From NCBI GenBank assembly GCA_043816965.1, contig JBDRHK010000015.1, forward strand, positions 3,548-67,547: DNA of 64,000 nt, read 5' to 3'. Source of the stretch: Candidatus Iainarchaeum sp. GTDB taxonomy: Archaea; Iainarchaeota; Iainarchaeia; Iainarchaeales; JAFCCJ01. The notes beneath the pieces were generated by a model, which had not been told where the DNA came from, did no database searches, and saw nothing but the letters and a program-made list of their open reading frames with translations. Shown here piece after piece: positions 1 to 34,247 of this stretch; positions within the stretch are counted from its first letter, which is position 1; each line of letters begins with the position of its first letter. A program made the position numbers and the translations under genes.

Positions 1-282
1 CACGCAGTGCACATCAACAGTAACCCCGGTCGCAAAATCATACCTGAATGCCCTTGCACAGTAACCATATGCTCCTGTTAATGGGGGAGGGATTCCTCCA
101 CCGGCAGGTCTCGTATAAAAAGAAACCATTGCAGCATCAATTGCCTGCTGCCTTGTGCTTTTGGCGGCCTCAACATCTGCCTTTTCAACAAGGTAAAGGT
201 TTGCATAGGCGGCCGCAAGAATAACAACCACAGCTATTGCAAACATGGCGTCAACACTGAAAGCAAAACCTTTATCAGACAT
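1..282 (-). CDS. pilin-like protein with class III (type IV prepilin) signal peptide, partial (runs off the window start)
   Basis: Manual translation of the minus strand from ATG at 282..280: MSDKGFAFSVDAMFAIAVVVILAAAY... Short charged leader then a hydrophobic helix. The start overlaps the stop of ORF 275..916. Not in the ORF track because no stop codon lies inside the window. Confidence 0.5.
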   Translation of the reverse strand, partial: MSDKGFAFSVDAMFAIAVVVILAAAYANLYLVEKADVEAAKSTRQQAIDAAMVSFYTRPAGGGIPPPLTGAYGYCARAFRYDFATGVTVDVHCV

Positions 283-916
283 TCTTCCACACCTTTAGCG
301 TTATTGTCCCCTGCTCCAAAGGGCAACCTAAACTGTCATTGTCCCTAATGCAATTATGGTATAACTCTTTTTTGAATATCCACTCCTCAAACCCTGGGCC
401 TTGTGTGCCATTAAGAAAAACAACATCCCTTGTCGATGAATACACATTGCTTGCGGACCCGTCAAAAATAGCTCCGCATTCATTTGCAGTCAGGTTTAAT
501 TCAGCAGTGATATTGCCAGAAACTGAACCATTTCCAGTAATATTGCAGGAATAGTCAGATGGAATCCCCAATTTTTCCTTTGTTATTTCTAATTCCGGGG
601 GAGGAGCCGTGAAAAGAGGAATGCAGCCCATCACAGGCGCAAGAGAGGTAAGCGTACCTGCAAAATCGCGTCCTGCCATTCTGCAGGAAAAATATTCATT
701 ATCTGTCGCAAGAAAGGAAGGCTTGCTCATAAGGATAAGTGTGGCGGTCTCCCCAACTGAATAAAGTTCGTTATTGATTTCCGCCTCCCTTTGGTTGTAT
801 TCCTGCAACTCCATAAACTGAAGCATCAGCCCAATTGCAAGAATTATGATTGTGAGGGAAAGGATAAAATCCAATGAAAAAATCTGGCCTTTTTTATTCA
901 ACATATCACCCAACAT
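275..916 (-). CDS. pilin-like protein (class III signal peptide, N-glycosylation sequon-rich)
   Basis: N-terminus MLGDMLNKKGQIFSLDFILSLTIIILAIGL (KGQ then hydrophobic helix). Many NxT/S sequons. Sits in the pilus gene cluster. Confidence 0.6.
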   Translation of the reverse strand: MLGDMLNKKGQIFSLDFILSLTIIILAIGLMLQFMELQEYNQREAEINNELYSVGETATLILMSKPSFLATDNEYFSCRMAGRDFAGTLTSLAPVMGCIPLFTAPPPELEITKEKLGIPSDYSCNITGNGSVSGNITAELNLTANECGAIFDGSASNVYSSTRDVVFLNGTQGPGFEEWIFKKELYHNCIRDNDSLGCPLEQGTITLKVWKNV

Positions 917-1364
917 CCACCGTTTCTCCGCATTTTATTGGAAAGGTTCCATTAAGGGTCGTTGTCTCCCTTGTTACAGCAACAGCCAGTTCCTCCGGGG
1001 CATCACCATAAATATTTCCCGCATCATCAAAATCAAAATTCATTGTCAATTTGTTGCCGGCATAATTTATCTCACAATCCAATGCCCGTCTCTCGCCAAT
1101 AAGAATTAGTTTTGGCACCGAATACGTAATATCAACAGTACTGGTGATTTCTGCCCCTGTTCCCGCAGTAAAAGACTGCGAAAGCTCCTCATTCAAGGTG
1201 TAAATCCTTGCAACCTCGTTTAAAATTGCCCTTCCCTGGGAACGTATTGAAATCGCCTGCTGGCTTTCAGTGACATCATCCATTAAAATTGCCATTCCCT
1301 GCACAAAAAGCATTGCCACCAAAATGGTTAATGTCAAATCAATGCTTACCTGACCCCTCTGCAT
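906..1364 (-). CDS. pilin-like protein (class III signal peptide)
   Basis: N-terminus MQRGQVSIDLTLTILVAMLFVQG. Overlaps neighbouring genes in an operon-like arrangement. Confidence 0.6.
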   Translation of the reverse strand: MQRGQVSIDLTLTILVAMLFVQGMAILMDDVTESQQAISIRSQGRAILNEVARIYTLNEELSQSFTAGTGAEITSTVDITYSVPKLILIGERRALDCEINYAGNKLTMNFDFDDAGNIYGDAPEELAVAVTRETTTLNGTFPIKCGETVDVG

Positions 1365-2602: not shown

Positions 2603-3022
2603 TCAAACTACTATAAATTCTTGTTGCTTTCCCCCAGAATCAAATGCAGCGATGGATTCCAGGTCATATGGATATGCTGCAATAAGATGGAAATCCCCGA
2701 ATTTTGTAAAACTGCTTAAATCCGCCATTGAGGGATATGCATTGGGGGATGGGTGGGAATGGACACTCCCCATTACCCTGGAATCTATGGGGATAAGCCA
2801 GCTCTTTATTGCGGTGAAATTTCTTCCATAAGTTGCGGGAACCACGACCAATTCATCAATAATGCCATTTTTCTTATCCCCGCCAAGAAGGGAAAAGAAC
2901 TCGTTAGGATAGGTATTGTGAGAAGCAATAATTATTGATTCTATTGTTTCCTTTTTAATTCGGTACATCGGAACCCCAAATAATAAGGGCAGAAAAATTA
3001 AAATACCGCAACAAATCAGCAA
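2603..3022 (-). CDS. JAMM/MPN-family metalloprotease (Mov34-like)
   Basis: JAMM motif HSHPSPNAYPSMADL (HxHx7Sx2D). 139 aa. Confidence 0.8.
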   Translation of the reverse strand: MLICCGILIFLPLLFGVPMYRIKKETIESIIIASHNTYPNEFFSLLGGDKKNGIIDELVVVPATYGRNFTAIKSWLIPIDSRVMGSVHSHPSPNAYPSMADLSSFTKFGDFHLIAAYPYDLESIAAFDSGGKQQEFIVV

Positions 3023-3354
3023 TTTTCCAATTGGGAAGGAATTCCGTTTGGGTATTCCTTGGCAGAGCAGACTTGGTTTTTAACATACCAACAGCAACCC
3101 ATAGCATAGCTGGCTCCAGCTGGGGCGAAATCACCTAAATCTGATGGATCAGCCTTACAGTTATTTTCATCGCCACCATATGTATTAATACATGATATTT
3201 TTGCGCCAGACAGCCGGCTAGGGGGATCGGGATTGATCGGAGGTAATATCGAAATTAGCACCACCGAAACAACAACTACGACAACCAATGTCATCAGAAC
3301 AGCCGCACCGACAATCAAAATCAACTTCTTATCCATGCAAACGAATAAGCCCAA
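3016..3354 (-). CDS. cysteine-rich secreted/membrane-anchored protein, paralog of the Cys-rich pilin at 7861..8193 (leader motif degenerated; likely start at MDKK, 3336)
   Basis: Shares AKISCINTYGG, LGDFAPAGASYAMGCCW and VCSAKEYP blocks plus 6 conserved Cys with the 7861..8193 protein. N-terminal hydrophobic helix. Confidence 0.5.
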   Translation of the reverse strand: MGLFVCMDKKLILIVGAAVLMTLVVVVVVSVVLISILPPINPDPPSRLSGAKISCINTYGGDENNCKADPSDLGDFAPAGASYAMGCCWYVKNQVCSAKEYPNGIPSQLENC

Positions 3355-4923: not shown

Positions 4924-4955
4924 AGCTTATTTGGAAAAGAAAAGAAGATAAATAA

Positions 4956-4971: not shown

Positions 4972-4973
4972 TA

Positions 4974-5567
4974 TTAGATTTTCTCTATTTCGACAGGCCT
5001 GGGCCCCAAAAGGCCCCTTTTAAGCCTAAGCTTAACCCTTTCCCCTTTTTTGAATTTCAAGCCTGATTTTATATTGTGCTTTTTCGCAACAGTCCAGGAC
5101 CTAAGATCAAATTCTGTTTCCACAAGGCAGTTCTCCCCGTCACTCATAATAACCTTTCCAAAACCATAGTTTCTTCTGAAAACCACCCAGAAAATTGCCA
5201 TGAAAATAAATAGCAGAATAATAAGCGCAAAAAAGAAAAAGCTCTGGCCTGAAAATTCAGGGGCAAAAACCGGCCCAAGCCAGCTCAGTTGGGCAATAAT
5301 AATCAAACCGACAAAGAAGTAGAGGTATGCGAAAAAATCCTCCTTGAATTCCTCCCGCCCCTCTGTTGCAAGCTCATAAAGGAGAATAACAATCAGAATT
5401 AATTCCGCAATCAAAAATAATTCATAAGGAATCAAAAATTTGAGAAAAACCCCTGCAATAATAACAAGCAGCAGAATCTGCATCTTGTAAACAAGATATG
5501 TGCGGTGGCTGAAATTGCCGACATTTTTCTCCAGGAATTTTTCAATCAAGCCAATCAGCTCGGGCAA
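4974..5567 (-). CDS. hypothetical membrane protein
   Basis: 4-5 hydrophobic helices and a basic C-terminal soluble tail. No recognisable family. Confidence 0.3.
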   Translation of the reverse strand: MPELIGLIEKFLEKNVGNFSHRTYLVYKMQILLLVIIAGVFLKFLIPYELFLIAELILIVILLYELATEGREEFKEDFFAYLYFFVGLIIIAQLSWLGPVFAPEFSGQSFFFFALIILLFIFMAIFWVVFRRNYGFGKVIMSDGENCLVETEFDLRSWTVAKKHNIKSGLKFKKGERVKLRLKRGLLGPRPVEIEKI

Positions 5568-5980
5568 TTAGTGCTAGAAGGAATATTGTCCCTATCTGTG
5601 CCGTTAATGCACACATGCACAGTCTCATATTTGCTCCTCAAAATAATCTCGTCCCGAAGATAATCTTTGAATGCGGTGGTGTCTAGGTTCATGCTGCCCC
5701 CGGAAAGAATTAAATCCAGCTTAATTGTGTCATCGCCTACAGTCTCAAAAAGTATTTCCTCAATGTACTCCATAGAATCAATCTGGCTCAGTTTGTCGAT
5801 TGTTTTTTCCTTTGCAATTATCAGCGCAATTGTTGAATCTTTTATGACCACGTAATTGGAAAGAATCATGGTAACCAAACCTATTACCGCCGCGAAAACG
5901 ATAATCAGCTCATAGCTGACCTGGCCGGAATTACTAAGCCAATTTGACAGTGGTTGTAGAACCATCTTTTTCAACCTCAA
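5555..5980 (-). CDS. pilin-like protein (class III signal peptide)
   Basis: Leader ...NSGQVSYELIIVFAAVIGLVTMIL. Located in the pilus cluster. Confidence 0.55.
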   Translation of the reverse strand: MRLKKMVLQPLSNWLSNSGQVSYELIIVFAAVIGLVTMILSNYVVIKDSTIALIIAKEKTIDKLSQIDSMEYIEEILFETVGDDTIKLDLILSGGSMNLDTTAFKDYLRDEIILRSKYETVHVCINGTDRDNIPSSTNCPS

Positions 5981-6488
5981 GAGTTACCACTATTCCGGCA
6001 TAATTATCCATATTGTCTATTTTTAATCCGCCTGAGCAGTTAACACTGCTACTATCTAATAATAAGTCAAACACCTTGGCACATTTTTCATTATCCCCAT
6101 CAATGTCATTAATGCAGGCAGACGGGGCCGAGTAAGCATTCAATAAAATCCCGTCCAGCGCAACCTGGAAGCAGATCCCATTCACGCAAGTTGCGCCAAT
6201 ATCGCTTAACTGGCAGGTTAGGATGGTGTTCCCAGGCACAAAAAGAGTAATGGTCCTTTTATTTTCCCCGGGAGCAACGCTCACAGCATCAATGGTATTT
6301 GCAAGCTTTTCCGCGGCAAATCTCGCCTGGCCAATCCTTGCGGTTTCCTTGCCGCTTGCGGCGGCAATTGTAAGCGAAGGGTTAACGACAGTCTGAATGA
6401 ACAGGGCAATAATCATCACAAGCATAATTATTTCAATAGAGGCCTGACCCCGCCTGCCTAAATTTTGAAAAAAGGAAATAGAACCCAT
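5934..6488 (-). CDS. pilin-like protein (class III signal peptide)
   Basis: Leader ...GRRGQASIEIIMLVMIIALF. Confidence 0.55.
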   Translation of the reverse strand: MGSISFFQNLGRRGQASIEIIMLVMIIALFIQTVVNPSLTIAAASGKETARIGQARFAAEKLANTIDAVSVAPGENKRTITLFVPGNTILTCQLSDIGATCVNGICFQVALDGILLNAYSAPSACINDIDGDNEKCAKVFDLLLDSSSVNCSGGLKIDNMDNYAGIVVTLEVEKDGSTTTVKLA

Positions 6489-7669
6489 AAAACATCCCCT
6501 ATCAATTGAAGCAACAAATAACCAATCAATATTCCTGGCACAAATGCTGTTGTTCCCTTCACCTCTATCTTTTTCGGAATTAAGCCCTTATTCGCAAGTT
6601 CCTTAATCTCTTTTAATTGCTCCCCTGTAAGGCCGCCGGCGCTTGAGGAACTTGCAACAACCCTTGCCCCTGGCTTAATCGCCTGGTTAAGGGCATCCAA
6701 ATTATTATCCATTAACTGCTTTATAAGTGTTCCTATAGAGGCCCCTTCCAGAATCTCTATTTTTCCGCCCTTTTCAACAATGGTTTTTAGCGGAATCTCC
6801 CCCTCCTCCAGGTCCCTGACATCTTTCTCCATTCCCAAAAGCCTTGCCAATGCCTTTTTTGGCCTGTGGTGCACAACAATTTCAATTGTGAGAGTAATGG
6901 TGAGAATGATAACAAAAACTACGGCAAAACTAAATATTGCGCTTGGCACAGAAAGGTAGAGCGCGAAGGCCAACAGAATGGCCGCAAGGAATTTCTGCAG
7001 GAGATAGCTTATTTTTTTAAGCCCAAGCAAGCCAATCACTGTAACAATTGGCAGATGGAATATTTCAGGAACTCCCAGGAAAATAAGAAGGGTTGCTGTC
7101 CCAACAATCGCCGCAGTTGTTATAACAATGCCGTTAATTTTTCTTTTCACCAATGCAACAACAACCCCCTTCAAATTCATTTTCTTTATCATTTCCCTTC
7201 TATCAATCATGCGCTTTAATGTTATTGCAGTCACCCATGGGACCATTGAAATAATGCTGAAAACGAAAAGCGAAAAAGGGAAGATTGGCTCTGAAACAGA
7301 CGCAAAATTAAAAGTAATGCCGAGAAGTGAAAGGCTTTCTAAACCAATTAAATCCCTGAGGACACCATGGTTTACTGTGTTGATTGTGGCAAGCCCTGTC
7401 ATCAGCTTAACATCGCCCCCCGCCCATCCCCCTGCCTTGTAAAGGAGCAATGAGCCAACGGCGGTGGCGAAGGTTACGGCGCCGGTTACAATGATTATTG
7501 AAGGGTCATTCGCAAGCAGGGACCTGATTCCCTGCAGAATCAGCCCGCCAAAAATAAGTGAAAATGTGAGTTTATTGGAAACAATCCTTTCCCGTAAATC
7601 GGTAAATGTGGCGATAATAAGGGCGATTATTGAAATTATGAAGAAGAAAATAGGAAAGCTGATAGGCAT
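6458..7669 (-). CDS. archaeal type IV prepilin peptidase (A24 family, PibD/FlaK/EppA-like) with C-terminal soluble extension
   Basis: Polytopic protein with the two catalytic Asp motifs, TDLRERIV near the N-terminus and GGWAGGDVKL. Adjacent to pilins and the assembly ATPase. Confidence 0.78.
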   Translation of the reverse strand: MPISFPIFFFIISIIALIIATFTDLRERIVSNKLTFSLIFGGLILQGIRSLLANDPSIIIVTGAVTFATAVGSLLLYKAGGWAGGDVKLMTGLATINTVNHGVLRDLIGLESLSLLGITFNFASVSEPIFPFSLFVFSIISMVPWVTAITLKRMIDRREMIKKMNLKGVVVALVKRKINGIVITTAAIVGTATLLIFLGVPEIFHLPIVTVIGLLGLKKISYLLQKFLAAILLAFALYLSVPSAIFSFAVVFVIILTITLTIEIVVHHRPKKALARLLGMEKDVRDLEEGEIPLKTIVEKGGKIEILEGASIGTLIKQLMDNNLDALNQAIKPGARVVASSSSAGGLTGEQLKEIKELANKGLIPKKIEVKGTTAFVPGILIGYLLLQLIGDVLWVLFPFFKI

Positions 7670-7673
7670 GTTA

Positions 7674-7844
7674 TCAGCCCATCAGAGATTCAATAGTTTC
7701 CGACCTGAATGAAAGAATTTTTGCCTGCGCAACATTCGCAATCGAAGCCAAGTTCATGGTTACAACCGAAGCTACCAAAACCAGCACCAGCACAAAGCCG
7801 ATGCTGATAAGGTACTCCAATGAAACTTGTGCCCTATTGTTCAT
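7674..7844 (-). CDS. small Flp-like pilin (56 aa), not in the ORF track
   Basis: Manual translation: MNNRAQVSLEYLISIGFVLVLVLVASVVTMNLASIANVAQAKILSFRSETIESLMG. Classic class III leader (RAQ then VSLEYL). Ends 5 nt before the prepilin peptidase start. Confidence 0.6.
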   Translation of the reverse strand: MNNRAQVSLEYLISIGFVLVLVLVASVVTMNLASIANVAQAKILSFRSETIESLMG

Positions 7845-7860
7845 GCTTTACACATCATTC

Positions 7861-8193
7861 TTAGCAATCTGTAAGTGCGGGAAGTGGTGTAGCATATTCT
7901 TTTGCAGAACAAACCTTATCTATAGTGTCCCAACAGCAACCAGCAGCGTAGTCTGCATTAGCAGGTGCGAAATCACCCAAAGCTTTGTCTGTTGCGTCAC
8001 CCAAACAGCCAGTGCCGCCTACAGCTCCCATAGTACCGCCATAAGTATTCAAACAGCTTACTTTCGCAGCACTAATTCTTGCCGGTTTGTCGTCACTTAT
8101 GGTTGTCAGCAATACTATAACCACCACAGCAACAAGCACAGCACCGCCAATCAGCAGCAGATACTCAAGTGCACCTTGTCCTTTTCTATCCAT
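7861..8193 (-). CDS. pilin with cysteine-rich C-terminal domain
   Basis: MDRKGQGALEYLLLIGGAVLVAVVV (class III leader). The mature part has 6 Cys (SCLNTYGG...GCLG...GCCW...VCSAKEY...TDC). A GGAGGA Shine-Dalgarno-like element and a TATA box lie upstream. Confidence 0.65.
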   Translation of the reverse strand: MDRKGQGALEYLLLIGGAVLVAVVVIVLLTTISDDKPARISAAKVSCLNTYGGTMGAVGGTGCLGDATDKALGDFAPANADYAAGCCWDTIDKVCSAKEYATPLPALTDC

Positions 8194-8278
8194 ATGTTCA
8201 TCCTCCTTTTGTTGGTTATAAATATGATATAATCTATCTAAACATATCCATTCTAGTATTTAAACCTTCTTCCGGCAT

Positions 8279-8443
8279 TTATCCAGTACTTTCCTCAAGC
8301 GCTTCGCCTGAAGTATCCTGGAGCTCCCGGCCAAGTGTTTTTAGATAAAAACCAACTGCCGCTGCAACTGCCAGAACCCCCCCTAAAATAAGGAGCATTT
8401 CAAGCGAACTTTGCGCCCTTTCCTCAAAAATCAATCCTTTCAT
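8279..8443 (-). CDS. small Flp-like pilin (54 aa), not in the ORF track
   Basis: Manual translation: MKGLIFEERAQSSLEMLLILGGVLAVAAAVGFYLKTLGRELQDTSGEALEESTG. Its start ATG overlaps the TadC-like stop (ATGA). Confidence 0.6.
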   Translation of the reverse strand: MKGLIFEERAQSSLEMLLILGGVLAVAAAVGFYLKTLGRELQDTSGEALEESTG

Positions 8444-9414
8444 GAAATACCACCCATTATTGACCTTGAACCAAACAATACAACTGTAAAGCAGATGTAT
8501 GCCACTAATAAGAGGAGTGGGAAGTATATAATACTTTTGCTCATCTTTCCATCTCTCATAAGTGAAATCATTATGCTTGCCGCAAGGGTTTCTATAAGAA
8601 CATATATCTGGATAAGCAGGGTTATGTCCTCCCTTGCCTTATCAGCAGCTTTGATTGCGGCATCATCTGCAACACCCTGGGCCGCAAGTATTAGGAAGCT
8701 TACAACAGTTGAAATAAAACCAAAGATTGCGGGAGCAACCAATGAGCCTGCAGTTACTAAGAAGATTACCTGCAGGCCTGTTTTTGACCTTCTTTCCTTG
8801 TTTATTCTATGTGTGGATCTGACATCTTCCGCAATCTGCTCAAGGATATCTGCCAATCCAGCACCTGCCTTGACAGAGTCAACAATTATTGTGACAGTTC
8901 TCTGTATAAGCCTTGAATCAATCTTGGAAAGAACTTTCAGCGAATTCTCGAAGTTTTCCCCCTCCTCAAGCTTCCTCAGGACATAGCCCATCTCCATTTT
9001 CAGTGCCCCATATTCGGATGCGGCAACTTCCCTCAGGGCATATTCATATGTTCCCCCGGCCCTCAATGTGTCGGCCATCTGCCTCAGCGCATCAGGCAGG
9101 GTTTCCTCAATTTCATCAATCCTTTTAAGTGCGTTCAGCAGGGGAAAGCCGATTGTAAGGTCAATGGCAACTATAAAAACTACTAATGGCAGGCCAGCCA
9201 GAACGCTCGTAAGAGAATCCATTTCAAGATAGTTTATCAGGGCATCAGAACCTGCCCAGGAACCGACAACAAGAAAAATCGACAAAAAAATGGAAAACAA
9301 AATCCAAAGGAAAGGGTCAAACCTGAATCCGCTCCATGCAAGCATTTTTGAGTAATATTTCAAAAAGCCTATGCTGTTCAGGACAGGAATCCTTTCCATC
9401 AGTCTCAATGCCAT
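8440..9414 (-). CDS. pilus assembly membrane protein with T2SS-F domain (TadC/FlaJ-like)
   Basis: Single T2SSF-type domain (LRQMADTLRAGGTYEYALREVAASEYGALKMEMGYVLRKLEEGENF) flanked by TM helices. Confidence 0.75.
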   Translation of the reverse strand: MALRLMERIPVLNSIGFLKYYSKMLAWSGFRFDPFLWILFSIFLSIFLVVGSWAGSDALINYLEMDSLTSVLAGLPLVVFIVAIDLTIGFPLLNALKRIDEIEETLPDALRQMADTLRAGGTYEYALREVAASEYGALKMEMGYVLRKLEEGENFENSLKVLSKIDSRLIQRTVTIIVDSVKAGAGLADILEQIAEDVRSTHRINKERRSKTGLQVIFLVTAGSLVAPAIFGFISTVVSFLILAAQGVADDAAIKAADKAREDITLLIQIYVLIETLAASIMISLMRDGKMSKSIIYFPLLLLVAYICFTVVLFGSRSIMGGIS

Positions 9415-9418
9415 AACA

Positions 9419-10570
9419 TCACACCGTCGGTTGCGCTATTTTTAGGTAATAAACAAGTAAAATCATTATCCCTGGCATAAGCACCAGGTAGAATATTCCC
9501 ATCATTGTGGGGTTAAGCCCAAGGCCGCCAACATTCGGCAGTGGGGAGTTTGTTATTCCCCCAATAACGGCAACAAACACAGGAATAACAATTGCCATAA
9601 AGATAAATATCACCCCGAAGAAATTCATCTTCTCCCCGAAATCCCTCATCGCAATCCTGAGCTCAAAAGAAACATCCTCGGCAATCTTGTTCATTATGTC
9701 CGAGAGGTTTCCCCCTGTCTTAAGCGCACGTATTATGTGGAGCAATGCGCTTCTTAAGGATTTGGATTCTGTCCTCAGTGCAAAGTGCCTTAGGGCAACT
9801 TTAGTGTCTGTTCCCTCCTCAACCTCGGAAATGGTCCTTGAAAATTCCTCTGAAAGGACGCCATAATCAGAAACAGCGATTGCCTGCAGTGTTTTGTAAA
9901 GCCCTATTCCTGCCTTTAATTCTGTTGACATATGCCTGAGGGCAAAGGGAAGCTCAACACTGATTTCCTTACCCCTCTTCATTGCCTTACTTTTTGGGTT
10001 GAGGAAGCAGATAATGGCTGCAAATAGGAACACAAAAATTGCAATAATCGGCGAAAGCAGCAAAATTAAGTTGTTGTCAAGGAACCAGCCAAGTCCTGCA
10101 AACAAAAGCAGCACAAAGAATGCAGCAATCACTGAAACAGAGGTTGAAATCGCAAGATATTGCTGGATGCTGTATTTCATGTTTGCGCTGTAAAGGTAAT
10201 AGCCTAACTCCCCCGCCCCCGGCATTCTTCTCAGAATCTTTGAAATGAACTTTAAGGGAAGCTCAAACAAAAGATAAACCCTGCCCAAGCTCCTGATTGT
10301 GGGGGAACTGAATTCAGTTAAATCCTCAATTCCCTGCACCCTTATTTTTGACAGCTGGCTTTCGGCAATTATTCCCCGCAGTTCGCTTAATCTGCCGCCA
10401 ACTTCCTCAAATTCAACTCCCTGATCCCGATATTTTTTTTTCATCCTGGTTACAATCTTGTCCACCGCATCAAGGTCGATTGATTCCTCATCCTTTTCAA
10501 TCGCGCCGAACTTTTTGGCCGTTTTCTTTTTTTCTTCAACCTGTTTTCTCAGATCATCAAGTTCAGGCAT
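9419..10570 (-). CDS. pilus assembly membrane protein with T2SS-F domain (TadB/FlaJ-like)
   Basis: T2SSF-type domain ([43 protein letters not shown]...[13 protein letters not shown]) with TM helices. A separate gene from the TadC-like one. Confidence 0.75.
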
Positions 10571-13500
10571 ATTCTCCCCTCTTCTTTAGCAGGTGGTCCT
10601 GGCAGGCTTTTGATACCTCTTCTATAGACCTTATCTTCTTGTCAACAAGGCTCTTAAGAAACCTTTCCCTGTCCTTAAGTTCGGCATCAATCTGCTTTTT
10701 TGACAGTCCGGTGTATTTTTCAAGTGTCCTGAGGTATGCGCTGGAGAAATTGGACCGAATGAGTTGATCAGTTATTGCATCCCTTTCGAAAAGGGTTTGG
10801 GTTGTTGATTTGCCCTCCAAGACCCCGCCAACCTCCGCCATCTCGGTAATTCTTCTAATGGTGCCTTTTTTCCTGTCATGAAGCCTGTGTTCTATAAGCA
10901 CGAAATCAAGCCCTGAAAGCATCATCTTAGGGACATTCATCGGAGGGCTTGTGACCCTTACTAGTGCCTCTTGGGGAGAGTTTGCGTGGACAGTCCCCAT
11001 GCAATTTGAAACAAACAAGCCATTGGCAATGTAATTGTGGTTATCTTTAACAGTCAGGTCGTAAACATATCCCTCGAATTCCCGGTCCTTCACTTCAACT
11101 ATTTCCTCGAACCTGAAATCAGATTCAACTAATTTTAAAAGTTCCTTTCCAATGGAATTTTCGGAAGTTATCATTGCAATTTTTTCCAGTTGCCCTCTCG
11201 ACGGATTTCTTTGGTTAGTTTCGTATGCCTCAATCGTTGACCTTGTTTTTGCATTCATAAAAGATGCCAATTCTGTTTGCGTTAAGTAACAATCGCTCCT
11301 CGCCCTTTTGATTAAACCGGAAATTTTCGGGAACAAATCCATCGAATTTTTTGAAACTTTCAATAGTCCTGCTAGTTTTTGCCTTTTTGCAGAATGCCTG
11401 AAGCCGATTTTCCCCTGGTATTTTTCAAGGTTATCCTTACCATAAATTGAAATTCTGTAGTAAGGGCCAATATTTCCTTTGCCGTCTTTTTCCTGAATAT
11501 TTGTTGAGGAGTGAATCCCGAATCTCTGGAGAATCATCGGAAGTTTTTTTGCCAGGTCGGGGTTTGATGTTGAGAATTGGATTGAGTTTGAATGCAGATT
11601 CACATGGGCCTCAGCATCGAAAAACCCGCATAATAATTCCCCGATATTTGACTCACTTGAACTTAAAGCCTTTTTCGTTATTTTGAATTTTTTTGTTTTA
11701 TTCCCTAGAGGAATATCATACTCCTCTTCAAAAAGTTTAACCAATTTTTTGTCAAAAACATTTACTCTGGAATAGTTTCCATAGTTTTTGACCGATACCT
11801 TGTTTTTGGTGGTTTTTCCAATCCCGTCCGCAAAATTTTCAATGACTGATTTTTCGTTGTTCACAAACTGAATCCCTTCGCTGTGAATGTGCCCATCTCC
11901 ATAAATCAATCCTGCCAAGTAGGGATGTTTTATTTTTTCCGTGGCACTAATCGTGATTGCCTTTGGAAATGCAATGAAATCCCCCCCCTTTGCCTCTTCA
12001 GAATTTATTTCCTGAATGCCATTATGTATCCTGTAAATCGGATGGTCTTTTGTCAAACAAATGCGTTTTCCTGAGCGGGTTTTTATTATTTTCATCATTT
12101 CTTTTGTTTTCTTCTTCCAGACCCGCGTAATTGGCCTGTTTTCAATTTTCAATGTCTTTTTGTTAAAGCTTGGGACAAGCAGTTCTTCACTTAATTCAAC
12201 AAATTTAAATTCTCCGTCGCTTATTGGACATGTTTCATTAAATTGCCTTTCAACAAAATCCCCAATTGCCTCAATATTCCCGTCTGAAAACTGAATTAAT
12301 GTTTCTCCATTTAATGCGCCTTCATGGCCGGTATTCATGGCGGTAAAAAGCGAGAATGCCTCATCATGCCTTATCTCACCAACTATAATTCTGTCAGGCC
12401 TCATCCTGAGGGAATTTTTAGTCAAAATATCCATTGTTATTTCCCCAGTTCCCTCCATTCCCGGGGGCCTTGATTCAAGCCTTATCCAGTGTTTTAAGGG
12501 AAGGTTCAGTTCTGCAGTGTCCTCAATTGAAACAATCCTTTCAGAAGCAGGAATAAATGAGGCAAGAACATTCAAAGTTGTTGTTTTCCCTGAACCGGTT
12601 CCTCCCGCAATCAGAATGTTTGCGGGCTTTACCCTCAATCCCTCAACACAAAGCCAGAGGAATGCAGCGGTTTCAAGGTTTACTGTATTGAGGTTCAGCA
12701 AATCAACTATTGACAACGGGTCTTCCCTGAATTTCCTTATAGTGAGGGTTGCACCACTTACAGATATGGGGGGGATGGTCGCATTAACCCTGCTCCCATC
12801 AGGGAGTCTTGCATCCAGCAAGGGGGCGGAAATATCAACCCTTCTTCCCACCTGCCTTCCTATCCTGTTTACGAGGTCCTCTATCTCGGACTCGGAAAAG
12901 AATTCAATATTGGTTTTCATCATTTCATATTCCCTGTGGAAAACATAAACCGGGCGTTTTGCGCCAATAACCATAATTTCCTCAAGCCTGTCATCCTTTA
13001 TCAGGGAATCAATAAGCCCATATCCGACCATCTCCCTCACAACAGCATCTGCATAAAACTCAAATCTTCTAGTTGGAATCCTTAACTCTTTCGAGGTCTG
13101 CAGGATTTCCATTATTTTCTGCTGGTAAACACTTCTCCTCTCTTCAGGGTCACGGATTTTGTAGGGGATTATGCTGATTATTCTTGTTGCAGCTTCCTTT
13201 ATTGTGTTGATTATTGTTTTATCCCCCTTCGTCGGCCTTGGCACAGGGGTATAGTAGTACATCAGGGGTTGGCCAGGAATTTCATATATTGTCGTATTTC
13301 CGTAAGATGCAACCTTAATTTTCTTTACATTTTCCATCTCCTTTTCGATTGTTGATTTATCCGGTTCTTCCTCTCCTTCTTTGGCGGGAATTCCCTCCAC
13401 CGAGGCAGGCCCCTTAGGCACTTCAGGGGATTTTCTCCTCTCAAAAATGTTCATAATCCCCTCCTTCCTGCTCTCAATTTCAGGAGTCTCCTCTTTTACC

Positions 13501-13682
13501 GGGGCAGCCACTGGCTCTTGGCGGGCCAAAAATTCATCTGCAGAAGGACCATTGGCTATAGGTTGCGAAGTTGCAGGGCCAGTTTCTATAGTAGACCCCT
13601 CTACCTTAATCCCCTTTTTTTCCTTTGCCTTTCTAATCAGATCATCCAAAGGGTTAGACATATATATCCCATTAATCAACAA
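10563..13682 (-). CDS. type IV pilus assembly ATPase (TadA/CpaF/FlaI family, GspE-like), intein-containing
   Basis: Walker [10 protein letters not shown], Asp box, His box AMNTGHEG. A 438-aa intein follows, then CMGTVHANS resumes host sequence. The N-terminal region is a low-complexity linker. Confidence 0.85.
11004..12317 (-). mobile_element. intein with LAGLIDADG homing endonuclease domain, inserted at TGHEG|C of the pilus ATPase
   Basis: Residues 456-893 of the ATPase. Block [14 protein letters not shown], block [19 protein letters not shown] motifs [11 protein letters not shown] and [11 protein letters not shown], block [25 protein letters not shown], +1 Cys. Coordinates checked codon by codon. 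Confidence 0.8.
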
Positions 13683-13827
13683 CGTTTCTTTTATTTAATG
13701 GTTTTGGCACGGCTATTTCCCTCCGGGAACTTGCACCCTTCCGGGCACAAGCGAGCTCCGTGCACACGGCGGCTCCCTACGGGGAACCTTGTTCGCTGCG
13801 TTCGCCAATTTGAATTATAAAATCAGC

Positions 13828-15732
13828 CTATTCCTTAGTTTCAATTTCCTTTTTCAATTTTTTTACAAATTCGCCAATCTTAAGCGCCTTCAATACCTTT
13901 TCATCCCTTGTGCGGGGAGTTACGGTTTTTCCTTTTTCTTCCCTTTCACCGACAACAACCATGTAATTAATTTTTTTCATCTGCGCATCCCTTATTTTGT
14001 AGGAAACAGTTTCAGTCCTCAAATCCAGTTCGGTTCTGATTCCCCCGGCCAGCAGTTTTCCATTCACGTCCTCCGCATAATTATTAAATTTCTCACTGAC
14101 AGGAATAACCTTAACCTGAACAGGGCTCAACCAAAGTGGGAACCGCCCGGCATAATGCTCAACAAGAATCCCCATAAACCTTTCAATCGAGCCATAGCAC
14201 GTCCTGTGGAGCATGGTTGGCCTGTGCTCTTTGTCATCCTTTCCGATATAGGAAAGTTCAAACTTCTCAGGCATAGTAAAATCAAGCTGGATTGTTCCGC
14301 ACTGCCAACTCCTTCCCAAAGCATCATTGATATGGAAATCAATCTTTGGCCCGTAAAATGCGCCATCGCCCTCATTCAATTTGTAATCAATCTTCTTTGC
14401 ATTCAATGCATTTTTCAATCCTGATTCTGCGGCCTCCCACATCTCAGCAGAACCCATTGCCTTCTCTGGTTTTGTGCTTAATTCGATTCTGTAATCCTTG
14501 AAGCCAAATGTCCCGTAGATGAAATCAAAAAGATCAATCACGCCGATAACCTCGCCCTTAATCTGCTCGCTTGTGCAATAAATGTGGGCATCATCCTGGG
14601 TAAATTTCCTCACCCTGAACAAACCATTCAGAACCCCGGAAAGCTCATGCCTGTGAACAGTTCCCAGCTCGGCAATCCTTAATGGCAAATCCCTGTAGGA
14701 ATGCCTCCTGGTTTTGTAAATTAAAATTCCTCCAGGACAGTTCATTGGCTTAACAGCATAATCCTCCTCATCAATTTGCGTAAAATACATGTTCTCCTTG
14801 TAGTGGTCCCAATGCCCTGACTTTTCCCACAACTCCCTTTTCAGGATTATGGGTGTGTTGACCTCGCCATAGCCTCTCTTAGAATGCTCATCCCTCCAGA
14901 ATTTCAGGAGCTCATTCCATATCACCATTCCATTCGGATGGAAGAAGGGAACCCCCGGAGATTCAGGGTGGAATGAGTAAAGCTCCAGATCAGTTCCAAT
15001 TTTGATGTGATTTCTTTTCTCTGCCTCTTCAATCAAATGCAGCCACTCATCCAGCATTTTTTTCTCGGGAAAAGCAATTCCATAAATTCTTGTAAGCATT
15101 TTATTTTTTGAGTCTCCTCTCCAATAAGCCCCTGCAATTTTTGTCAATTTAAAGGCGTTAATATAATGCGTATTTGGAACATGTGGCCCTTTGCATAAGT
15201 TATCAAATTCGCCCTGGCGATAGATGCTGACTTTCCCGCCCTTAACTGCATTAACCAGTTCAGTTTTATATGGGTCATTTTTGTAAAAGGCGAGTGCCTC
15301 TTTTTTGGGAACATCCCTTTGGCTTATCCCCCGTTTTTCCTTCACAATCTTCCGCATTTCTTCCTCAATTTTTTTTAGGTCCTCGGGATGCAGTTCTTTT
15401 ATATCATAATCCTGGTAAAAACCGTCATCTATTGCCGTACCCACGCCCAAACCAATATTTTGGCCTTTAAAGACCCTTAATACTGCCTGGGTCATAATAT
15501 GGGATGCGCTGTGCCAGAAAACGCTTTTTCCTTCATCATTTTTGAAAGTGATTATCTCAATCTTCCCATTTTTTTCAATCGGCTTGTTCAAATCCAGCAA
15601 TTCATCATTTACCTTAACCGCGAGCGCGGCCCTTGCAAGGCCGCTGCCTATTGATTCCGCTATCTTCCCGCCGGTAATGCCCTTCTTGAACTTCTTTTTC
15701 GAATTATCCGGAAATGTAAGTTCAATATCCAT
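13828..15732 (-). CDS. thrS: threonyl-tRNA synthetase
   Basis: TGS domain at the N-terminus (MDIELTFPDNSKK), class II aaRS motifs (FRxE-like ...HRHELSG..., GPKIDFH...). The track ORF (to 15960) over-extends upstream; the first in-frame ATG with homology is at 15732..15730. Confidence 0.9.
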   Translation of the reverse strand: MDIELTFPDNSKKKFKKGITGGKIAESIGSGLARAALAVKVNDELLDLNKPIEKNGKIEIITFKNDEGKSVFWHSASHIMTQAVLRVFKGQNIGLGVGTAIDDGFYQDYDIKELHPEDLKKIEEEMRKIVKEKRGISQRDVPKKEALAFYKNDPYKTELVNAVKGGKVSIYRQGEFDNLCKGPHVPNTHYINAFKLTKIAGAYWRGDSKNKMLTRIYGIAFPEKKMLDEWLHLIEEAEKRNHIKIGTDLELYSFHPESPGVPFFHPNGMVIWNELLKFWRDEHSKRGYGEVNTPIILKRELWEKSGHWDHYKENMYFTQIDEEDYAVKPMNCPGGILIYKTRRHSYRDLPLRIAELGTVHRHELSGVLNGLFRVRKFTQDDAHIYCTSEQIKGEVIGVIDLFDFIYGTFGFKDYRIELSTKPEKAMGSAEMWEAAESGLKNALNAKKIDYKLNEGDGAFYGPKIDFHINDALGRSWQCGTIQLDFTMPEKFELSYIGKDDKEHRPTMLHRTCYGSIERFMGILVEHYAGRFPLWLSPVQVKVIPVSEKFNNYAEDVNGKLLAGGIRTELDLRTETVSYKIRDAQMKKINYMVVVGEREEKGKTVTPRTRDEKVLKALKIGEFVKKLKKEIETKE

Positions 15733-15855
15733 ATTCACCACTATAATGCTTACTATGAATTCATTAATAAATAATTTAATATAATAAGCCCATAAACTGA
15801 ATTTTACCAATTTCGCGCAGAAGCAGATTAAAGCACTTCTTTCCCAAAATTTTAT

Positions 15856-17088
15856 ATGATTTCGCCCTCGTTCTGCGTAAGGTGCAAGGGAAGGGGCTGG
15901 TGTGGGGGAAACTGCAGAATTCTCGAAAAGCACACCAACCAGCTGAAGGCTCTTTCCCAATTCTCAGGCACAGAACTGCATGGAAACAGCCCTCCTGCGC
16001 TTTTTGTGGGAAGATACGGCTACCCAAAAGTGAATTTAGCCCCGCTTTCCCCGCCATCGATACTCAAGGATTCCTCCATTCTGGAATCCCCTGAAAGGTG
16101 GTTTGGCCTGTCGCAGGAAAAAATAATTTCCATGCGCGAGCAGTTGGTTAGGGGCAATATAAAGGTTGAAATCAATTCAGCAAGGGACCCCTCCTACCAA
16201 ATCGGCGAAATTCAGGAAACCGCAATGGCAGCCTCCCCGGTAGAAGTTGAAATTGATTTGAAAAACCGGCCCATCCCAAAACTTTCCTTCTCAGATTCCT
16301 CTGCACCAATGGGGCCTAGTGCGGAGATGAAAAAATTCACCCTCACTGAAAATCCATCAATTCCCACTAAAGTGGATTACCTGGTTTCTGATACTGATGT
16401 GCTAAGCACAACCGCCCTCAACGAATTATACCGTTCAGGAATTCCTGTTTCTTCCCTGAGCAAATTATTAAGTGCCGGCCTTTTAGGTGTGAAAAAAAGA
16501 AGAAAGTTTGTTCCGACCAGGTGGGCGATAACAGCTGCAGACTCCAACATCGCAAAAGAGATGGTTGAGGAAAAGGTAAAGGGATTCCAGCAGATAGGTT
16601 CCCATTTCCTGTTCAATTCCAACTACCTTGACAACAACTTTTTTGTCCTCCTGATTCCTGGCGAATGGCAGTTCGAGCAGCTTGAGGCATGGGCTCCTGG
16701 AGGAGTGTGGACAGAGGGGGCGAAAGAACCGAGTGTAATTTCTGATTTCGAATTTTACGGAGGGAGGAAGAAATATGCGGACAATGTTGCAGGCGCCTAC
16801 TATGCGGCAAAGCTTGCAGTTGCAGAATATCTGGTGAAAGAGAAGAGGCAGGCAGGGGCGTTAATTTTCAGGGAGATTGGAGCTGGCTACCAGACGCCAA
16901 TGGGCGTTTGGGTAATTCGCGAGGTGGTAAGGAATGCCTTCTCCAAAAAACCAATGGAATTTTTCGATTTGAATTTGGTGCTAAAATACATCGAATCCAG
17001 ATTAAAAATCCCGATGAAATTCTACCGAAAGGAAAGCAAAATCCTCGAAAGAATAAGAACACAGCGCAAATTGAGTGAATGGTATTAA
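15856..17088 (+). CDS. NreA-like DNA repair protein (archaeal Nre family)
   Basis: N-terminal Cys cluster CVRCKGRGWCGGNC typical of the Nre N-terminal domain. 410 aa. Sits in a replication/repair neighbourhood. Family recalled from memory. Confidence 0.5.
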   Translation: MISPSFCVRCKGRGWCGGNCRILEKHTNQLKALSQFSGTELHGNSPPALFVGRYGYPKVNLAPLSPPSILKDSSILESPERWFGLSQEKIISMREQLVRGNIKVEINSARDPSYQIGEIQETAMAASPVEVEIDLKNRPIPKLSFSDSSAPMGPSAEMKKFTLTENPSIPTKVDYLVSDTDVLSTTALNELYRSGIPVSSLSKLLSAGLLGVKKRRKFVPTRWAITAADSNIAKEMVEEKVKGFQQIGSHFLFNSNYLDNNFFVLLIPGEWQFEQLEAWAPGGVWTEGAKEPSVISDFEFYGGRKKYADNVAGAYYAAKLAVAEYLVKEKRQAGALIFREIGAGYQTPMGVWVIREVVRNAFSKKPMEFFDLNLVLKYIESRLKIPMKFYRKESKILERIRTQRKLSEWY

Positions 17089-31981: not shown

Positions 31982-32554
31982 ATGAATCCCCGAGGAATTT
32001 TCTCCTTCATATTGGTTTTGCTCTTCATCCAGCTAATTGTTGTTTCTGCAGGAATCAATTCCTCAACCAGCAGGGAAATTGGGGAAGCCATAAACACCCT
32101 CATTGAACTTGAAAACTCCTCCCTGAAAAGGGCCGAGCTGGAGCAGAATCTGGATTTCCTGATAAAAAAGGCTGTTGAGAGGGAGGTTTTCTTTGGAAAT
32201 TCCGAGCCTGAGTTGATTGAGCAGAAACTAAACCATGAAATTGATTCCTTTGTTTCCCAAACTGAAAGCATTTACGGTGCAAGCCCGAAAATGGAATTCA
32301 ATTTAGTTCAGGATTTCCAAAGATTGAAAATTCCCCAAAAAAAGGCCCGCAGGAAACTGGGAAAAGGGGAGCTGCACAACTACTTCAATGTAATGGTTCT
32401 GAACCTTGAGGAAAATATTTTCATCGTGGAATTTGATTATTCCGGGGGCCTGATGAAAGACCATCGCTTCTTTGCGGTAATTTCCTCTCCAAAAACCGAG
32501 CAGTTGTTTGAGATTCCGGCAGGATACACGCAAATCATTACGGTGGTTAGATGA
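31982..32554 (+). CDS. pilin-like/secreted protein with class III-like N-terminus
   Basis: MNPRGIFSFILVLLFIQLIVV resembles the KGQIFSLD leaders of the first cluster. Confidence 0.4.
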   Translation: MNPRGIFSFILVLLFIQLIVVSAGINSSTSREIGEAINTLIELENSSLKRAELEQNLDFLIKKAVEREVFFGNSEPELIEQKLNHEIDSFVSQTESIYGASPKMEFNLVQDFQRLKIPQKKARRKLGKGELHNYFNVMVLNLEENIFIVEFDYSGGLMKDHRFFAVISSPKTEQLFEIPAGYTQIITVVR

Positions 32555-32892
32555 TAAGTATTGAGGCGATGATTTGCTTCCTTGTGTTTGTAATACTTCT
32601 CGGAATTATTGCCGCAGGAATTGGGGAACAGATTCAATTGTTTGATTTTTCATCAGGCGCATTCATTGCAAGAAATGAATCAGAAAAATGCGCGGTTCTT
32701 GTTGATGCCCTCTATTCGAATGGAGGGGGGACACTGAATGAAAACAAATTTGGCTGCTTTATTTCGGAAAACGGGATTTCCTCAAAGTTTGGGGATTGGG
32801 AAAAGGCATCCCTCACTGTAAGCAATTCTGCAGTGCAGGTTGAGGGGGATTTAAGCATGATTGAGGTTAATGGGGATGGCCATTATAGGTGA
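32551..32892 (+). CDS. small pilin-like protein (short leader)
   Basis: MISIEAMICFLVFVILLGIIAAG. Overlapping starts and stops give an operon-like arrangement. Confidence 0.35.
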   Translation: MISIEAMICFLVFVILLGIIAAGIGEQIQLFDFSSGAFIARNESEKCAVLVDALYSNGGGTLNENKFGCFISENGISSKFGDWEKASLTVSNSAVQVEGDLSMIEVNGDGHYR

Positions 32893-33361
32893 GAGGGGCC
32901 TTATATTCAGCCTGGATTTGGCTGTGGCGGTGATGGTTATGTTTGCGATTGCCTTTCTCATACTCCTGCATTCAGCCTCACTAATCGAAAATAACGCTTC
33001 CCTCCAAAACAGGCTCTCTTTGGAAAGAAAGGCAATCTATCTTGCGGATTCCCTTGTAAAAAACCGGAGTCCTGAAAATCCGCTTTTAGGGTCGGCCAGT
33101 TACAATCCTCTCCTGAAAAGGGTGGAAACAAACAAAATTGATTATTCACTACTCAAATCAATTTCAGATAAAAATTTTGGCCTTAATGGAATTTCAATTT
33201 CACTTTTGGAAATCGAATACAAAAACAGGGAAAAGGAAAAAATAATTGAAAACCCCCTTTCTGGCGAATGCATCTCAGTTGAAAGATTTGTCCTGATGCA
33301 AAAAATCTTGCCTGAAAAGGCATTGTTAAGGCTGGTGGTGTGTGATGCATCTCTCAACTGA
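32876..33361 (+). CDS. pilin-like protein (class III signal peptide)
   Basis: MAIIGERGLIFSLDLAVAVMVMFAIAFL, homologous to the 275..916 leader. The track ORF starts at 32861. Confidence 0.5.
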   Translation: MAIIGERGLIFSLDLAVAVMVMFAIAFLILLHSASLIENNASLQNRLSLERKAIYLADSLVKNRSPENPLLGSASYNPLLKRVETNKIDYSLLKSISDKNFGLNGISISLLEIEYKNREKEKIIENPLSGECISVERFVLMQKILPEKALLRLVVCDASLN

Positions 33362-34076: not shown

Positions 34077-34247
34077 TCAGATATCCTCAATCTGCTCGAA
34101 TATTTCGCTTGTTTTGTTGTCGATTACCTTTGCCCCCTCCTCGGTTGTTTTCTGGAGCTGGCTTACGAGAAGCAAAACTATCGCAACAACCGCGGCAAGG
34201 ACAATAATCATTTCCACAGAAATCTGCGCTTTTTCCTCATAAAACAT
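34077..34247 (-). CDS. small Flp-like pilin (56 aa), not in the ORF track
   Basis: Manual translation: MFYEEKAQISVEMIIVLAAVVAIVLLLVSQLQKTTEEGAKVIDNKTSEIFEQIEDI. Its stop TGA directly abuts the ATG of 33663..34076. Confidence 0.6.
   Translation of the reverse strand: MFYEEKAQISVEMIIVLAAVVAIVLLLVSQLQKTTEEGAKVIDNKTSEIFEQIEDI

Follow-up and report, generated by a model that had tools for sequence, protein, structure and literature searches.

Two single-T2SSF platform genes together with short pilins unite the Epd-like pilus systems of archaea and the Tad systems of bacteria, and a gene-fission scenario has been proposed for the platforms of both (Denise et al., 2019, PMC6668835). In Methanococcus maripaludis, the ATPase EpdL acts together with EpdJ and EpdK, two paralogues of PilC, and the pilins EpdA-E carry the sites RAQI, KGQV, KGQL and KGQI, in which Gln at position +1 and Glu at +5 mark substrates of the "much larger" peptidase EppA (PMC4371748); pilins with Gln+1 cannot be processed by the peptidase FlaK of this species (PMC4371748). 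Its major pilin, MMP1685 (EpdE), is encoded away from the main locus, as one of the class III genes that stand alone (Makarova et al., 2016). Among DPANN archaea, type IV pili have been mentioned generically for Diapherotrites genomes (PMC8561730), and DPANN pilin diversity has already been remarked on (PMC6393860). Here we report on a stretch of 64,000 nucleotides (nt) from Candidatus Iainarchaeum sp. (contig JBDRHK010000015.1; referred to as the window and numbered from its first letter), taken from a metagenome-assembled genome (MAG) of the lineage Candidatus Diapherotrites/Iainarchaeota (DPANN). Its minus strand, read from 13682 to 4974, very probably carries one tightly packed operon of ~8.7 kb for an archaeal Epd-like (EppA-dependent-type) type IV pilus. 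No published account of this particular conserved operon was found, and the supplements of Makarova et al. (2016) hold no entries for Iainarchaeum, AR10 or MJ0781.

Layout and conservation of the candidate pilus operon

A scan with one genome per GTDB species yielded 80 related loci (L001-L080), among them those of Candidatus Iainarchaeum andersonii (L004) and of the complete AR10 genome (L005). The proteins of the window were mapped onto all open reading frames (ORFs) of these loci by phmmer, and the closest relative (L001, 90% identity in the platform protein T2SSF1) served as reference for the ratio of non-synonymous to synonymous divergence (pN/pS). Gene order is near-invariant and runs from threonyl-tRNA synthetase (ThrRS) through the ATPase, T2SSF1, T2SSF2, an A-type pilin, one to three B-type pilins, a C-type pilin, the peptidase, p184 and p141 to, in some cases, a DUF2101 gene. 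T2SSF1 has 716 homologues, overwhelmingly from MAGs of Diapherotrites/Iainarchaeota. The search of the large database returned merely 4 matches for the 56-aa pilin and 3 for p184; since the word index used there is insensitive to short or fast-evolving proteins, conservation is shown from the 80 loci. An operon of the Iainarchaeota type was also seen on contigs labelled Falkowbacteria, Moranbacteria, Thaumarchaeota or Micrarchaeota (L047, L033, L071, L058, L073 and the protein P0083), which are probably mis-binned or mislabelled MAG contigs. The features of the operon are as follows, in the direction of reading.

10563..13682, minus strand: ATPase precursor of the CpaF/TadA/FlaI (VirB11) superfamily (PF00437); overlaps the start of T2SSF1 by 8 nt
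11004..12317, minus strand: class 2 (KlbA-type) intein inside the ATPase (PF14890, PF14528, PF01381)
9419..10570, minus strand: platform protein 1 (T2SSF1, 383 aa; PF00482); followed by a gap of 4 nt
8440..9414, minus strand: platform protein 2 (T2SSF2, 324 aa; PF00482); its stop overlaps the ATG of the 54-aa ORF (ATGA)
8279..8443, minus strand: A-type small pilin (54 aa; PF04021); followed by a spacer of 85 nt
8202..8264, minus strand: putative internal promoter and ribosome-binding site of the B-type pilin, read from the sequence
7861..8193, minus strand: B-type pilin (110 aa; PF04021); followed by 16 nt
7674..7844, minus strand: C-type small pilin (56 aa; PF04021 below the gathering score); followed by 4 nt
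6458..7669, minus strand: prepilin peptidase (403 aa; PF01478 and PF06819); overlaps the next gene
5934..6488, minus strand: p184, pilin-like, probable minor pilin (184 aa; class-III-type N-terminus); overlaps the next gene
5555..5980, minus strand: p141, pilin-like, probable minor pilin (141 aa; marginal PF04021); overlaps the DUF2101 gene by 13 nt
4974..5567, minus strand: DUF2101 polytopic membrane protein (197 aa; PF09874, E 1e-13), the last gene of the operon

A previous reading of the locus, made from the letters alone (hereafter the sequence-only reading), had named two single-T2SSF genes, a CpaF-like ATPase, a prepilin peptidase and two tiny pilins. All of its coordinates are exact, and the Pfam domains bear out the two platform genes, the ATPase and the peptidase. 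It had nothing on the third pilin of 110 aa, on p184 and p141, or on the 438-aa intein within the 1039-aa ATPase ORF. ATGA-type coupling, which it had claimed for both tiny pilins, holds for the 54-aa ORF, the ATG of which (8443..8441) lies over the stop codon (TGA) of T2SSF2. No overlap is seen for the 56-aa ORF, which is separated from the 110-aa gene by 16 nt and from the peptidase gene by 4 nt. Both small ORFs had further been described as missed by the ORF track. A length cut-off of 60 aa indeed drops them, but the GenBank record of this MAG has both, the 54-aa ORF as MFH1586396.1 ("class III signal peptide-containing protein") and the 56-aa ORF as MFH1586394.1 ("hypothetical protein", ABID38_00895), along with the 110-aa pilin as MFH1586395.1. 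Genuine pilin genes of about 55 codons thus are the kind that length cut-offs hide.

A TATA-like box, TTAAATAA, lies at 13698..13691, 37 nt upstream of the ATG at 13661. The ATPases of relatives begin at the equivalent Met, and the true start of the ATPase is probably this ATG and not the TTG at 13682. From this box and similar ones ahead of the ATPase in most relatives, a promoter of the operon's own is predicted. The gene for ThrRS (13828..15960, minus strand) lies directly upstream in the same orientation, as it does in 52 of the 80 loci; since the TATA box separates it from the operon, this adjacency appears to be conserved synteny with no evident link in function. The spacer between ThrRS and the ATPase holds a GC-rich double hairpin (13705..13790, minus strand; folding z -1.7, not significant), which has no Rfam or tRNA match and is not conserved in the closest relative; it is probably a terminator or a lineage-specific structure. 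No RNA genes were found by Rfam (gathering threshold over the whole window, E-value mode over 13600..13900) or by ARAGORN.

Class III pilins and the prepilin peptidase

The three short pilins share a class III type of N-terminus. Cleavage of the 54-aa ORF is predicted at MKGLIFEERA|QSSLEML, leaving a mature protein of 44 aa; that of the 56-aa ORF at MNNRA|QVSLEYL, leaving 51 aa; and that of the B-type pilin at MDRKG|QGALEYLLLIGGAVL, leaving 105 aa. Against the gathering score of PF04021 (Class_IIIsignal), which is 23.7 bits, the 54-aa ORF reaches 27.1, the 110-aa pilin 32.4 and the 56-aa ORF 20.1 bits, the last just under it. The motif [KR][GAS]Q...E[YFLMIVW] followed by a hydrophobic stretch occurs in 6 ORFs of the whole window, versus 0.01 expected from 100 triplet shuffles. 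Short pilins with RAQ-S/V-SLE leaders, as the sequence-only reading had them, are hence present; its term "Flp-like" fits their size, but their family is PF04021 with Gln+1 and not Flp. Indeed, Pfam at E<=0.1 gave no match of the small pilins to the Flp family, and PF04021 alone was returned.

Relatives of the 54-aa ORF were found by phmmer in 63 of the 80 loci and relatives of the 56-aa ORF in 65, at the same positions; the refuting condition of the sequence-only reading, small ORFs that lack conservation in relatives, does not hold. Between T2SSF2 and the peptidase, 62 loci could be anchored; each has 2-5 class III ORFs, which fall into three orthogroups in the order A-B(n)-C. A-type pilins (45 instances; …EE[KR][AG]|Q.S.E.L…) have a median mature length of 45 aa, and their start overlaps the stop of T2SSF2 by 4 nt in 19 of the 45. 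B-type pilins occur in 1-3 tandem copies per locus with the consensus MD.K[GA]|QGALEYLLLIGGA…; they have an almost invariant N-terminal helix and a variable C-terminal domain, mature lengths range from 33 to 191 aa, and the C-termini are often rich in Cys (6 Cys here). C-type pilins (58 instances; …[KR]A|QVS.EYLLT…) measure precisely 51 aa when mature in 34 of the 58.

Compared to the closest relative, the 54-aa ORF shows 13 synonymous and 1 non-synonymous differences (pN/pS 0.02) and the 56-aa ORF 21 and 2 (pN/pS 0.03). The platform genes and the peptidase show 80:46, 81:55 and 117:76 (pN/pS 0.17–0.21), and the 110-aa pilin 44:71 (pN/pS 0.56), driven by its fast-evolving C-terminus. By this measure, no gene of the operon is under tighter constraint than the two tiny ORFs, and codon-level divergence marks them as real genes under strong purifying selection. 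One might still take them for chance ORFs or remnants and regard larger proteins alone as the real pilins, given their lengths of 54 and 56 aa, the profile score below the gathering threshold for one of them and the 4 database matches of the 56-aa pilin. However, position and sequence are conserved throughout the phylum, synonymous changes prevail as described, the motif far exceeds its expected count, ATGA coupling with T2SSF2 is kept in the A-type genes listed above, and the NCBI pipeline called both independently. We consider this alternative exceedingly improbable; at the level of sequence evolution it is already refuted.

Upstream of the B-type pilin, a TATA-like box, TTTAAATA, is located at 8264..8257 and a GGAGG at 8206..8202, within a perfect AAGGAGG. 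The 85-nt spacer that holds them is about 90% identical to that of the closest relative, while synonymous sites have diverged by 30-60%. AAGGAGG precedes the B-type gene in nearly all loci and a TATA-like box does so in about 18 of 62, and an internal promoter is predicted at this place. Owing to the strong Shine-Dalgarno sequence, the invariant helix and the fast-evolving C-terminus, the B-type protein would appear to be the most likely major pilin.

The peptidase combines PF01478 (E 4.8e-11) with PF06819 Arc_PepC (E 2e-8) and is an A24 aspartyl protease with an archaeal C-terminal domain. Its catalytic motifs contain Asp24 (TDLRE) and Asp86 (AGGDVK); among 56 orthologues, the second is kept in all 56 and the first in 51. 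The FlaK model reaches 23.5 bits, far below its equivalog cut-off. By its domains and a weak model match (see below), the enzyme may be described as EppA-like. Five cleavage sites are predicted among the products of the operon, namely RA|QSSLE, KG|QGALE, RA|QVSLE, RG|QASIE and SG|QVSYE; they match the sites of M. maripaludis EpdA-E given above.

The last two of these belong to p184 and p141. The former has a predicted cleavage at GRRG|QASIEII, one transmembrane helix at residues 17-35, no Pfam match, and homologues in the same position in 56 loci; the secondary structure of a low-confidence model consists of a long N-terminal helix followed by beta-strands. The latter has a predicted cleavage at LSNSG|QVSYELI, a transmembrane helix at residues 21-39, a marginal PF04021 match (E 0.1), and homologues in the same position in 32 loci. 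An internal ATG is probably the true start of p141. The exact ORF is absent from the protein collection, and the public annotation probably uses another start. The DUF2101 gene has a phmmer match in the same position in 12 related loci; its position in the operon makes its product a possible accessory pilus component.

Further pilin-like genes were noticed in the window. A 112-aa protein at 3016..3354 (minus strand) is paralogous to the 110-aa pilin (45% identity, E 6e-26); the two share the transmembrane helix and the 6-Cys C-terminal domain, and L001 has an orthologue (9615..9956). The 112-aa protein lacks exactly the processing and assembly motif "GQGALE", and because of this it looks like a membrane-anchored non-pilus version. 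A second cluster of pilin-like genes is situated some 25 kb away (33663..34247, minus strand, and 31982..33686, plus strand). It contains a tiny class III ORF of 56 aa at 34077..34247 (MFYEEKA|QISVEM, A-type-like), an adjoining 137-aa protein with MRG|QLSLEY (PF04021, 22.8 bits) and, facing these, four ORFs on the plus strand that begin with a short charged segment ahead of a hydrophobic helix and are not matched by Pfam. Two adjacent ORFs at 275..916 (NKKG|QIFSLDF) and 906..1364 (MQRG|QVSIDL), both on the minus strand, have pilin-like N-termini in which Asp takes the place of Glu at +5, and Pfam gave no match for either.

The ATPase, its intein and the split platform

The ATPase ORF encodes 1039 aa, or 601 aa without the intein, and matches PF00437 (T2SSE, E 5.5e-40). 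In the PDB, the spliced protein is most similar to Caulobacter CpaF (266 bits), followed by GspE2 of Archaeoglobus fulgidus (234) and FlaI of Sulfolobus acidocaldarius (215). Over the shared core of 328 aa the values are 261 bits and 45.6% identity for CpaF, 213 bits and 41.2% for GspE2, and 198 bits and 38.6% for FlaI. A tblastn search of plasmids gave top matches that are all bacterial "CpaF family protein" genes, at 45-47% identity. The 70 C-terminal residues align only with archaeal FlaI and GspE2 and not with CpaF; the FlaI profile of NCBIfam covers residues 177-590 of the spliced protein, C-terminus included, and the NCBIfam scan gave no match to the CpaF equivalog model. By these comparisons, the ATPase has a CpaF-like core yet is not a bacterial protein.

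The intein (438 aa, ATPase residues 456-893) was placed by alignment with intein-free relatives. It is inserted exactly between NTGHEG and CMGTVHA and carries LAGLIDADG homing-endonuclease and helix-turn-helix domains; its first residue is Ala, its end reads ...VSN, and Cys follows at +1. Its best match in the PDB is 2JMZ, the KlbA intein precursor of Methanocaldococcus jannaschii MJ0781 (109 bits). The N-extein of MJ0781 reads MNTGHDG|A, and the insertion site in the two homologous secretion ATPases is identical (MNTGH[DE]G|A). The hallmarks of class 2 inteins are Ala1, Ser at G:6 and Cys+1, along with Asn at G:7 and orthology to the M. jannaschii KlbA intein at one shared insertion site (PMC4031507). 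All of them are found here, and on this sequence evidence the intein is a class 2 intein, allelic with the KlbA intein of M. jannaschii. The two have in common Ala1, the penultimate Ser, the terminal Asn, Cys+1 and the site. The solved construct of the M. jannaschii intein (2JMZ/2JNQ) is a chain of 186 aa including flanking extein residues, whereas the present one has the full length of 438 aa with LAGLIDADG and helix-turn-helix domains and resides in a DPANN archaeon. The closest relative, 90% identical in T2SSF1, has no intein and has kept Cys+1.

Inteins were seen in 25 of 66 full-length ATPases of the related loci (e.g. L005, L045, L054, L003, L009, L011 and L021). Two types occupy the site NTGHxG| in different lineages, a class-2-like one in 11 loci (first residue Ala, Met, Ser or Arg; ...SN|Cys; 438, 533 or ~180-207 aa) and a class 1 one, also in 11 loci (Cys1...GN|Ser; ~460 or 182 aa). 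At a second site, IED|TAELNL, 4 loci have an intein of 515 aa (Ser1...HN|Thr), and L054 is occupied at both sites. The loci of Iainarchaeota supply many new class 2 (KlbA-type) intein alleles.

Both platform proteins contain a single PF00482 domain, at residues 210-336 of T2SSF1 (E 5e-20) and 109-234 of T2SSF2 (E 1.3e-15), and hhalign gives a probability of 99.7% for their being paralogues. T2SSF1 consists of a conserved cytoplasmic N-terminal extension of ~130 aa, two transmembrane helices, the T2SSF domain and C-terminal transmembrane helices. In NCBIfam, T2SSF1 aligns to the N-terminal half of UpsF (positions 16-252 of 484, E 5e-9) and T2SSF2 to the C-terminal half of two-domain platforms (positions 215-462 of 465 in ArlJ/FlaJ and 282-479 of 484 in UpsF); the ArlJ match reaches 52 bits versus a cut-off of 400. 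The AlphaFold2 model of T2SSF1 (predicted local distance difference test, pLDDT, 79) shows a single cytoplasmic domain of the EpsF/PilC type, with target-normalised TM-scores of 0.72-0.76 to the domains of EpsF, OutF and PilC in Foldseek; the search with this model found the generic T2SSF cytoplasmic domain only and no full-length match to TadB, TadC or FlaJ. These matches to halves of two-domain profiles are consistent with the fission of the platform gene that Denise et al. (2019, PMC6668835) propose for the Epd-like and Tad systems.

As to the possibility, raised by the sequence-only reading, that one platform gene was split by a sequencing frameshift, the two genes are distinct ORFs in every one of the 80 loci, their junctions range from a 4-nt overlap to ~170 nt, and a frameshift is excluded. 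An apparent insertion in T2SSF1, suggested by tblastn matches of ~1,700 nt in some loci, was rejected as merely the extension of the match into the paralogous T2SSF2. The N-terminal extension of T2SSF1 (residues 1-130, 10180..10570) has invariant residues V36, I39, V40, M43, Y47, G51, G59 and R65; its model is of low confidence and no family match was found. It possibly docks the ATPase.

The bacterial matches of the ATPase raise the question whether this is a bacterial-type Tad/Flp (T4cP) locus, brought in by recent horizontal transfer or lying on a mis-binned bacterial contig. Besides the CpaF matches of the ATPase core in the PDB and among plasmids, the succession of ATPase, platform and platform mirrors tadA-tadB-tadC, the pilins are Flp-sized (cf. 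L081, a genuine Tad locus on a Paracoccus plasmid used for comparison), and a few related contigs bear bacterial labels of the candidate phyla radiation (CPR; L047, P0083). However, the pilins are of the archaeal PF04021 type with Gln+1, with the Flp family absent from their matches as stated above, and the peptidase with its Arc_PepC domain has 403 aa as opposed to the 164-aa TadV of L081. The platform proteins find their best profiles in UpsF and ArlJ; tblastn against plasmids, where TadB/C genes would be matched, returned 0 and 2 weak matches, an outcome of little information, and aligning the profiles of both proteins by hhalign to single TadB and TadC sequences from Paracoccus yielded weak scores of 26-40 that do not discriminate. 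The C-terminus of the ATPase aligns with FlaI and GspE2, and its intein is allelic with an archaeal one. TadZ/CpaE, CpaB/RcpC, the secretin RcpA/CpaC and TadD-G were not found in the operon, its flanks or the 80 loci, and the operon is syntenic in all of these Iainarchaeota loci, the complete genome L005 included. An origin as a Tad locus is very improbable and can be regarded as largely refuted. The label "Tad/Epd-like" given to the locus before fits with respect to the two single-T2SSF genes, the short pilins and the ATPase core closer to CpaF; as a refinement suggested by these comparisons, the locus would belong to the archaeal, Epd side of the Epd-like/Tad pairing and not to the Tad side.

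Proposed function and comparison with known systems

Based on this dataset, we hypothesize the following course of events for an Epd-like pilus. The ATPase precursor would become active only once the class 2 KlbA-type intein is spliced out; the insertion falls within a conserved stretch of the catalytic domain, NTGH-G / GT-HA. The two paralogous single-T2SSF proteins may jointly form the platform, presumably as a heterodimer, in place of the one two-domain protein of FlaJ/PilC type from which other archaeal systems build it. By analogy to EppA of M. maripaludis, the EppA-like peptidase would trim the leaders of five substrates of the operon, after [KR/S][GA] and before the invariant Gln+1, with Glu at +5. 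Processed pilins would then be extracted from the membrane and polymerised to a thin filament consisting mostly of N-terminal helices. The B-type protein is the most likely candidate for the major subunit, considering its invariant helix, a presumably exposed variable C-terminus, the tandem copies in relatives, the perfect Shine-Dalgarno sequence and its apparent own promoter. The A- and C-type mini-pilins together with p184 and p141 would probably be minor or priming subunits, though these roles could be reversed. A likely role of the filament is adhesion to surfaces or to host cells.

Alternatively, the machine may not be an adhesive pilus but a short pseudopilus or other type IV filament that serves protein secretion, or DNA uptake or exchange with a host. 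This would suit a DPANN symbiont with a reduced genome. Within the type IV filament superfamily, these core parts also serve secretion and the uptake of DNA (PMC6668835). For DPANN and CPR organisms, a use of pili in contacts between cells and in taking up extracellular DNA is assumed (PMC9938205), and five different pilin-like proteins in one operon resemble pseudopilus sets. Against this, neither ComEC-like genes nor those for nucleases or secreted substrates are linked with the operon in the window or in the 80 loci, and the only characterised relatives of this architecture, the Epd pili of M. maripaludis and the bacterial Tad pili, are adhesion pili. We regard such a function as unlikely and favor an Epd-like adhesive pilus.

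Several observations weigh against the Epd-like assignment. The margin by which the ATPase core is closer to CpaF than to the archaeal ATPases is modest, and in NCBIfam the FlaI profile scores higher (312 bits, cut-off 550) than the TadA-family profile (242), both being below their cut-offs. EppA is the best NCBIfam match of the peptidase but a weak one, with 47 bits versus a cut-off of 450. The AlphaFold2 model of p184, built from an alignment of 3 sequences, has a pLDDT of 42 and is unusable for a fold search. Lastly, a FlaH/KaiC-like or TadZ-like second ATPase was not found adjoining the locus: in positions 1-18,800 of the window, the assembly ATPase is the sole ORF with a Walker-A motif, and mapping placed no further ATPase ORF beside the operon in the 80 related loci. 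Denise et al. show a secondary ATPase (FlaH/KaiC-like, arCOG04148) adjoining the Epd ATPase (PMC6668835); such adjacency is an organisational trait and not a mandatory component of Epd systems. Membership in the Epd-like clade is suggested by shared features, by pairwise similarity to CpaF, FlaI and GspE2, and, as a proxy, by the KlbA intein allele shared with MJ0781.

One compact and strongly conserved Epd-like operon, with all parts and three families of short pilins, is kept by a whole DPANN phylum. Organisms of this kind are thought to live attached to other cells, which makes the operon the obvious candidate for the attachment organelle. It may also be seen as a deep-branching minimal archaeal addition to the Epd-like group, the proposed source of bacterial Tad, and could sharpen phylogenies of the transfer from Epd to Tad. 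Current concepts are unchanged by these data, since Denise et al. (2019, PMC6668835) had already described both the architecture and its connection with Tad. A bolder reading, which we hold to be rather unlikely, is that the system of Iainarchaeota is the closest living archaeal relative of bacterial Tad, closer than the Epd systems of methanogens. If this were true, cell-attached archaea similar to DPANN would be the donor lineage of Tad, and the locus would preserve the configuration right after fission of the platform gene. As a separate and likewise rather unlikely possibility, the two ultra-conserved mini-pilins could be co-polymerising core subunits of a new filament architecture instead of minor pilins.

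Compared to the archaellum (FlaI/FlaJ) and the Ups/Aap systems (UpsE/UpsF), the locus shares an ATPase of the VirB11 superfamily, and T2SSF1 and T2SSF2 match the N- and C-terminal halves of the two-domain platform, which here is split into two genes. An assignment as archaellum was rejected on account of this split, of FlaI and ArlJ models below their cut-offs and of the lack of a second Walker-A ATPase near the locus; no Pfam or NCBIfam match to archaellins or archaellum accessory families (FlaH, FlaF/G, FlaC/D/E) was found among the scanned products of the operon, and archaellum-specific genes are missing from its flanks and from the related loci as well. The pilins also differ by their Gln+1, which FlaK of M. 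maripaludis does not process.

With the bacterial Tad/Flp systems (Caulobacter CpaF with Flp/PilA, and the Paracoccus locus), it has in common the ATPase core of 45-47% identity to CpaF, an ATPase gene followed by two single-T2SSF genes, pilin precursors of 54-58 aa with Glu at +5 and Tyr at +6, and a peptidase gene within the locus. It differs in the size and Arc_PepC domain of the peptidase, in the archaeal C-terminal tail of the ATPase, and in platform proteins that can barely be aligned to TadB and TadC.

With the Epd system of M. maripaludis, it shares one PilB-like ATPase encoded alongside two PilC paralogues and a dedicated large A24 peptidase, class III signal pilins with Gln+1 and Glu+5 (RAQ/KGQ sites), and several minor and short pilins in a system that has no outer-membrane component. 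In contrast to M. maripaludis, the candidate major pilins and the peptidase are here all encoded in one operon of 8.7 kb, two of the pilins have a mature length of a mere 44-51 aa, and the host is a DPANN archaeon and not a methanogen.

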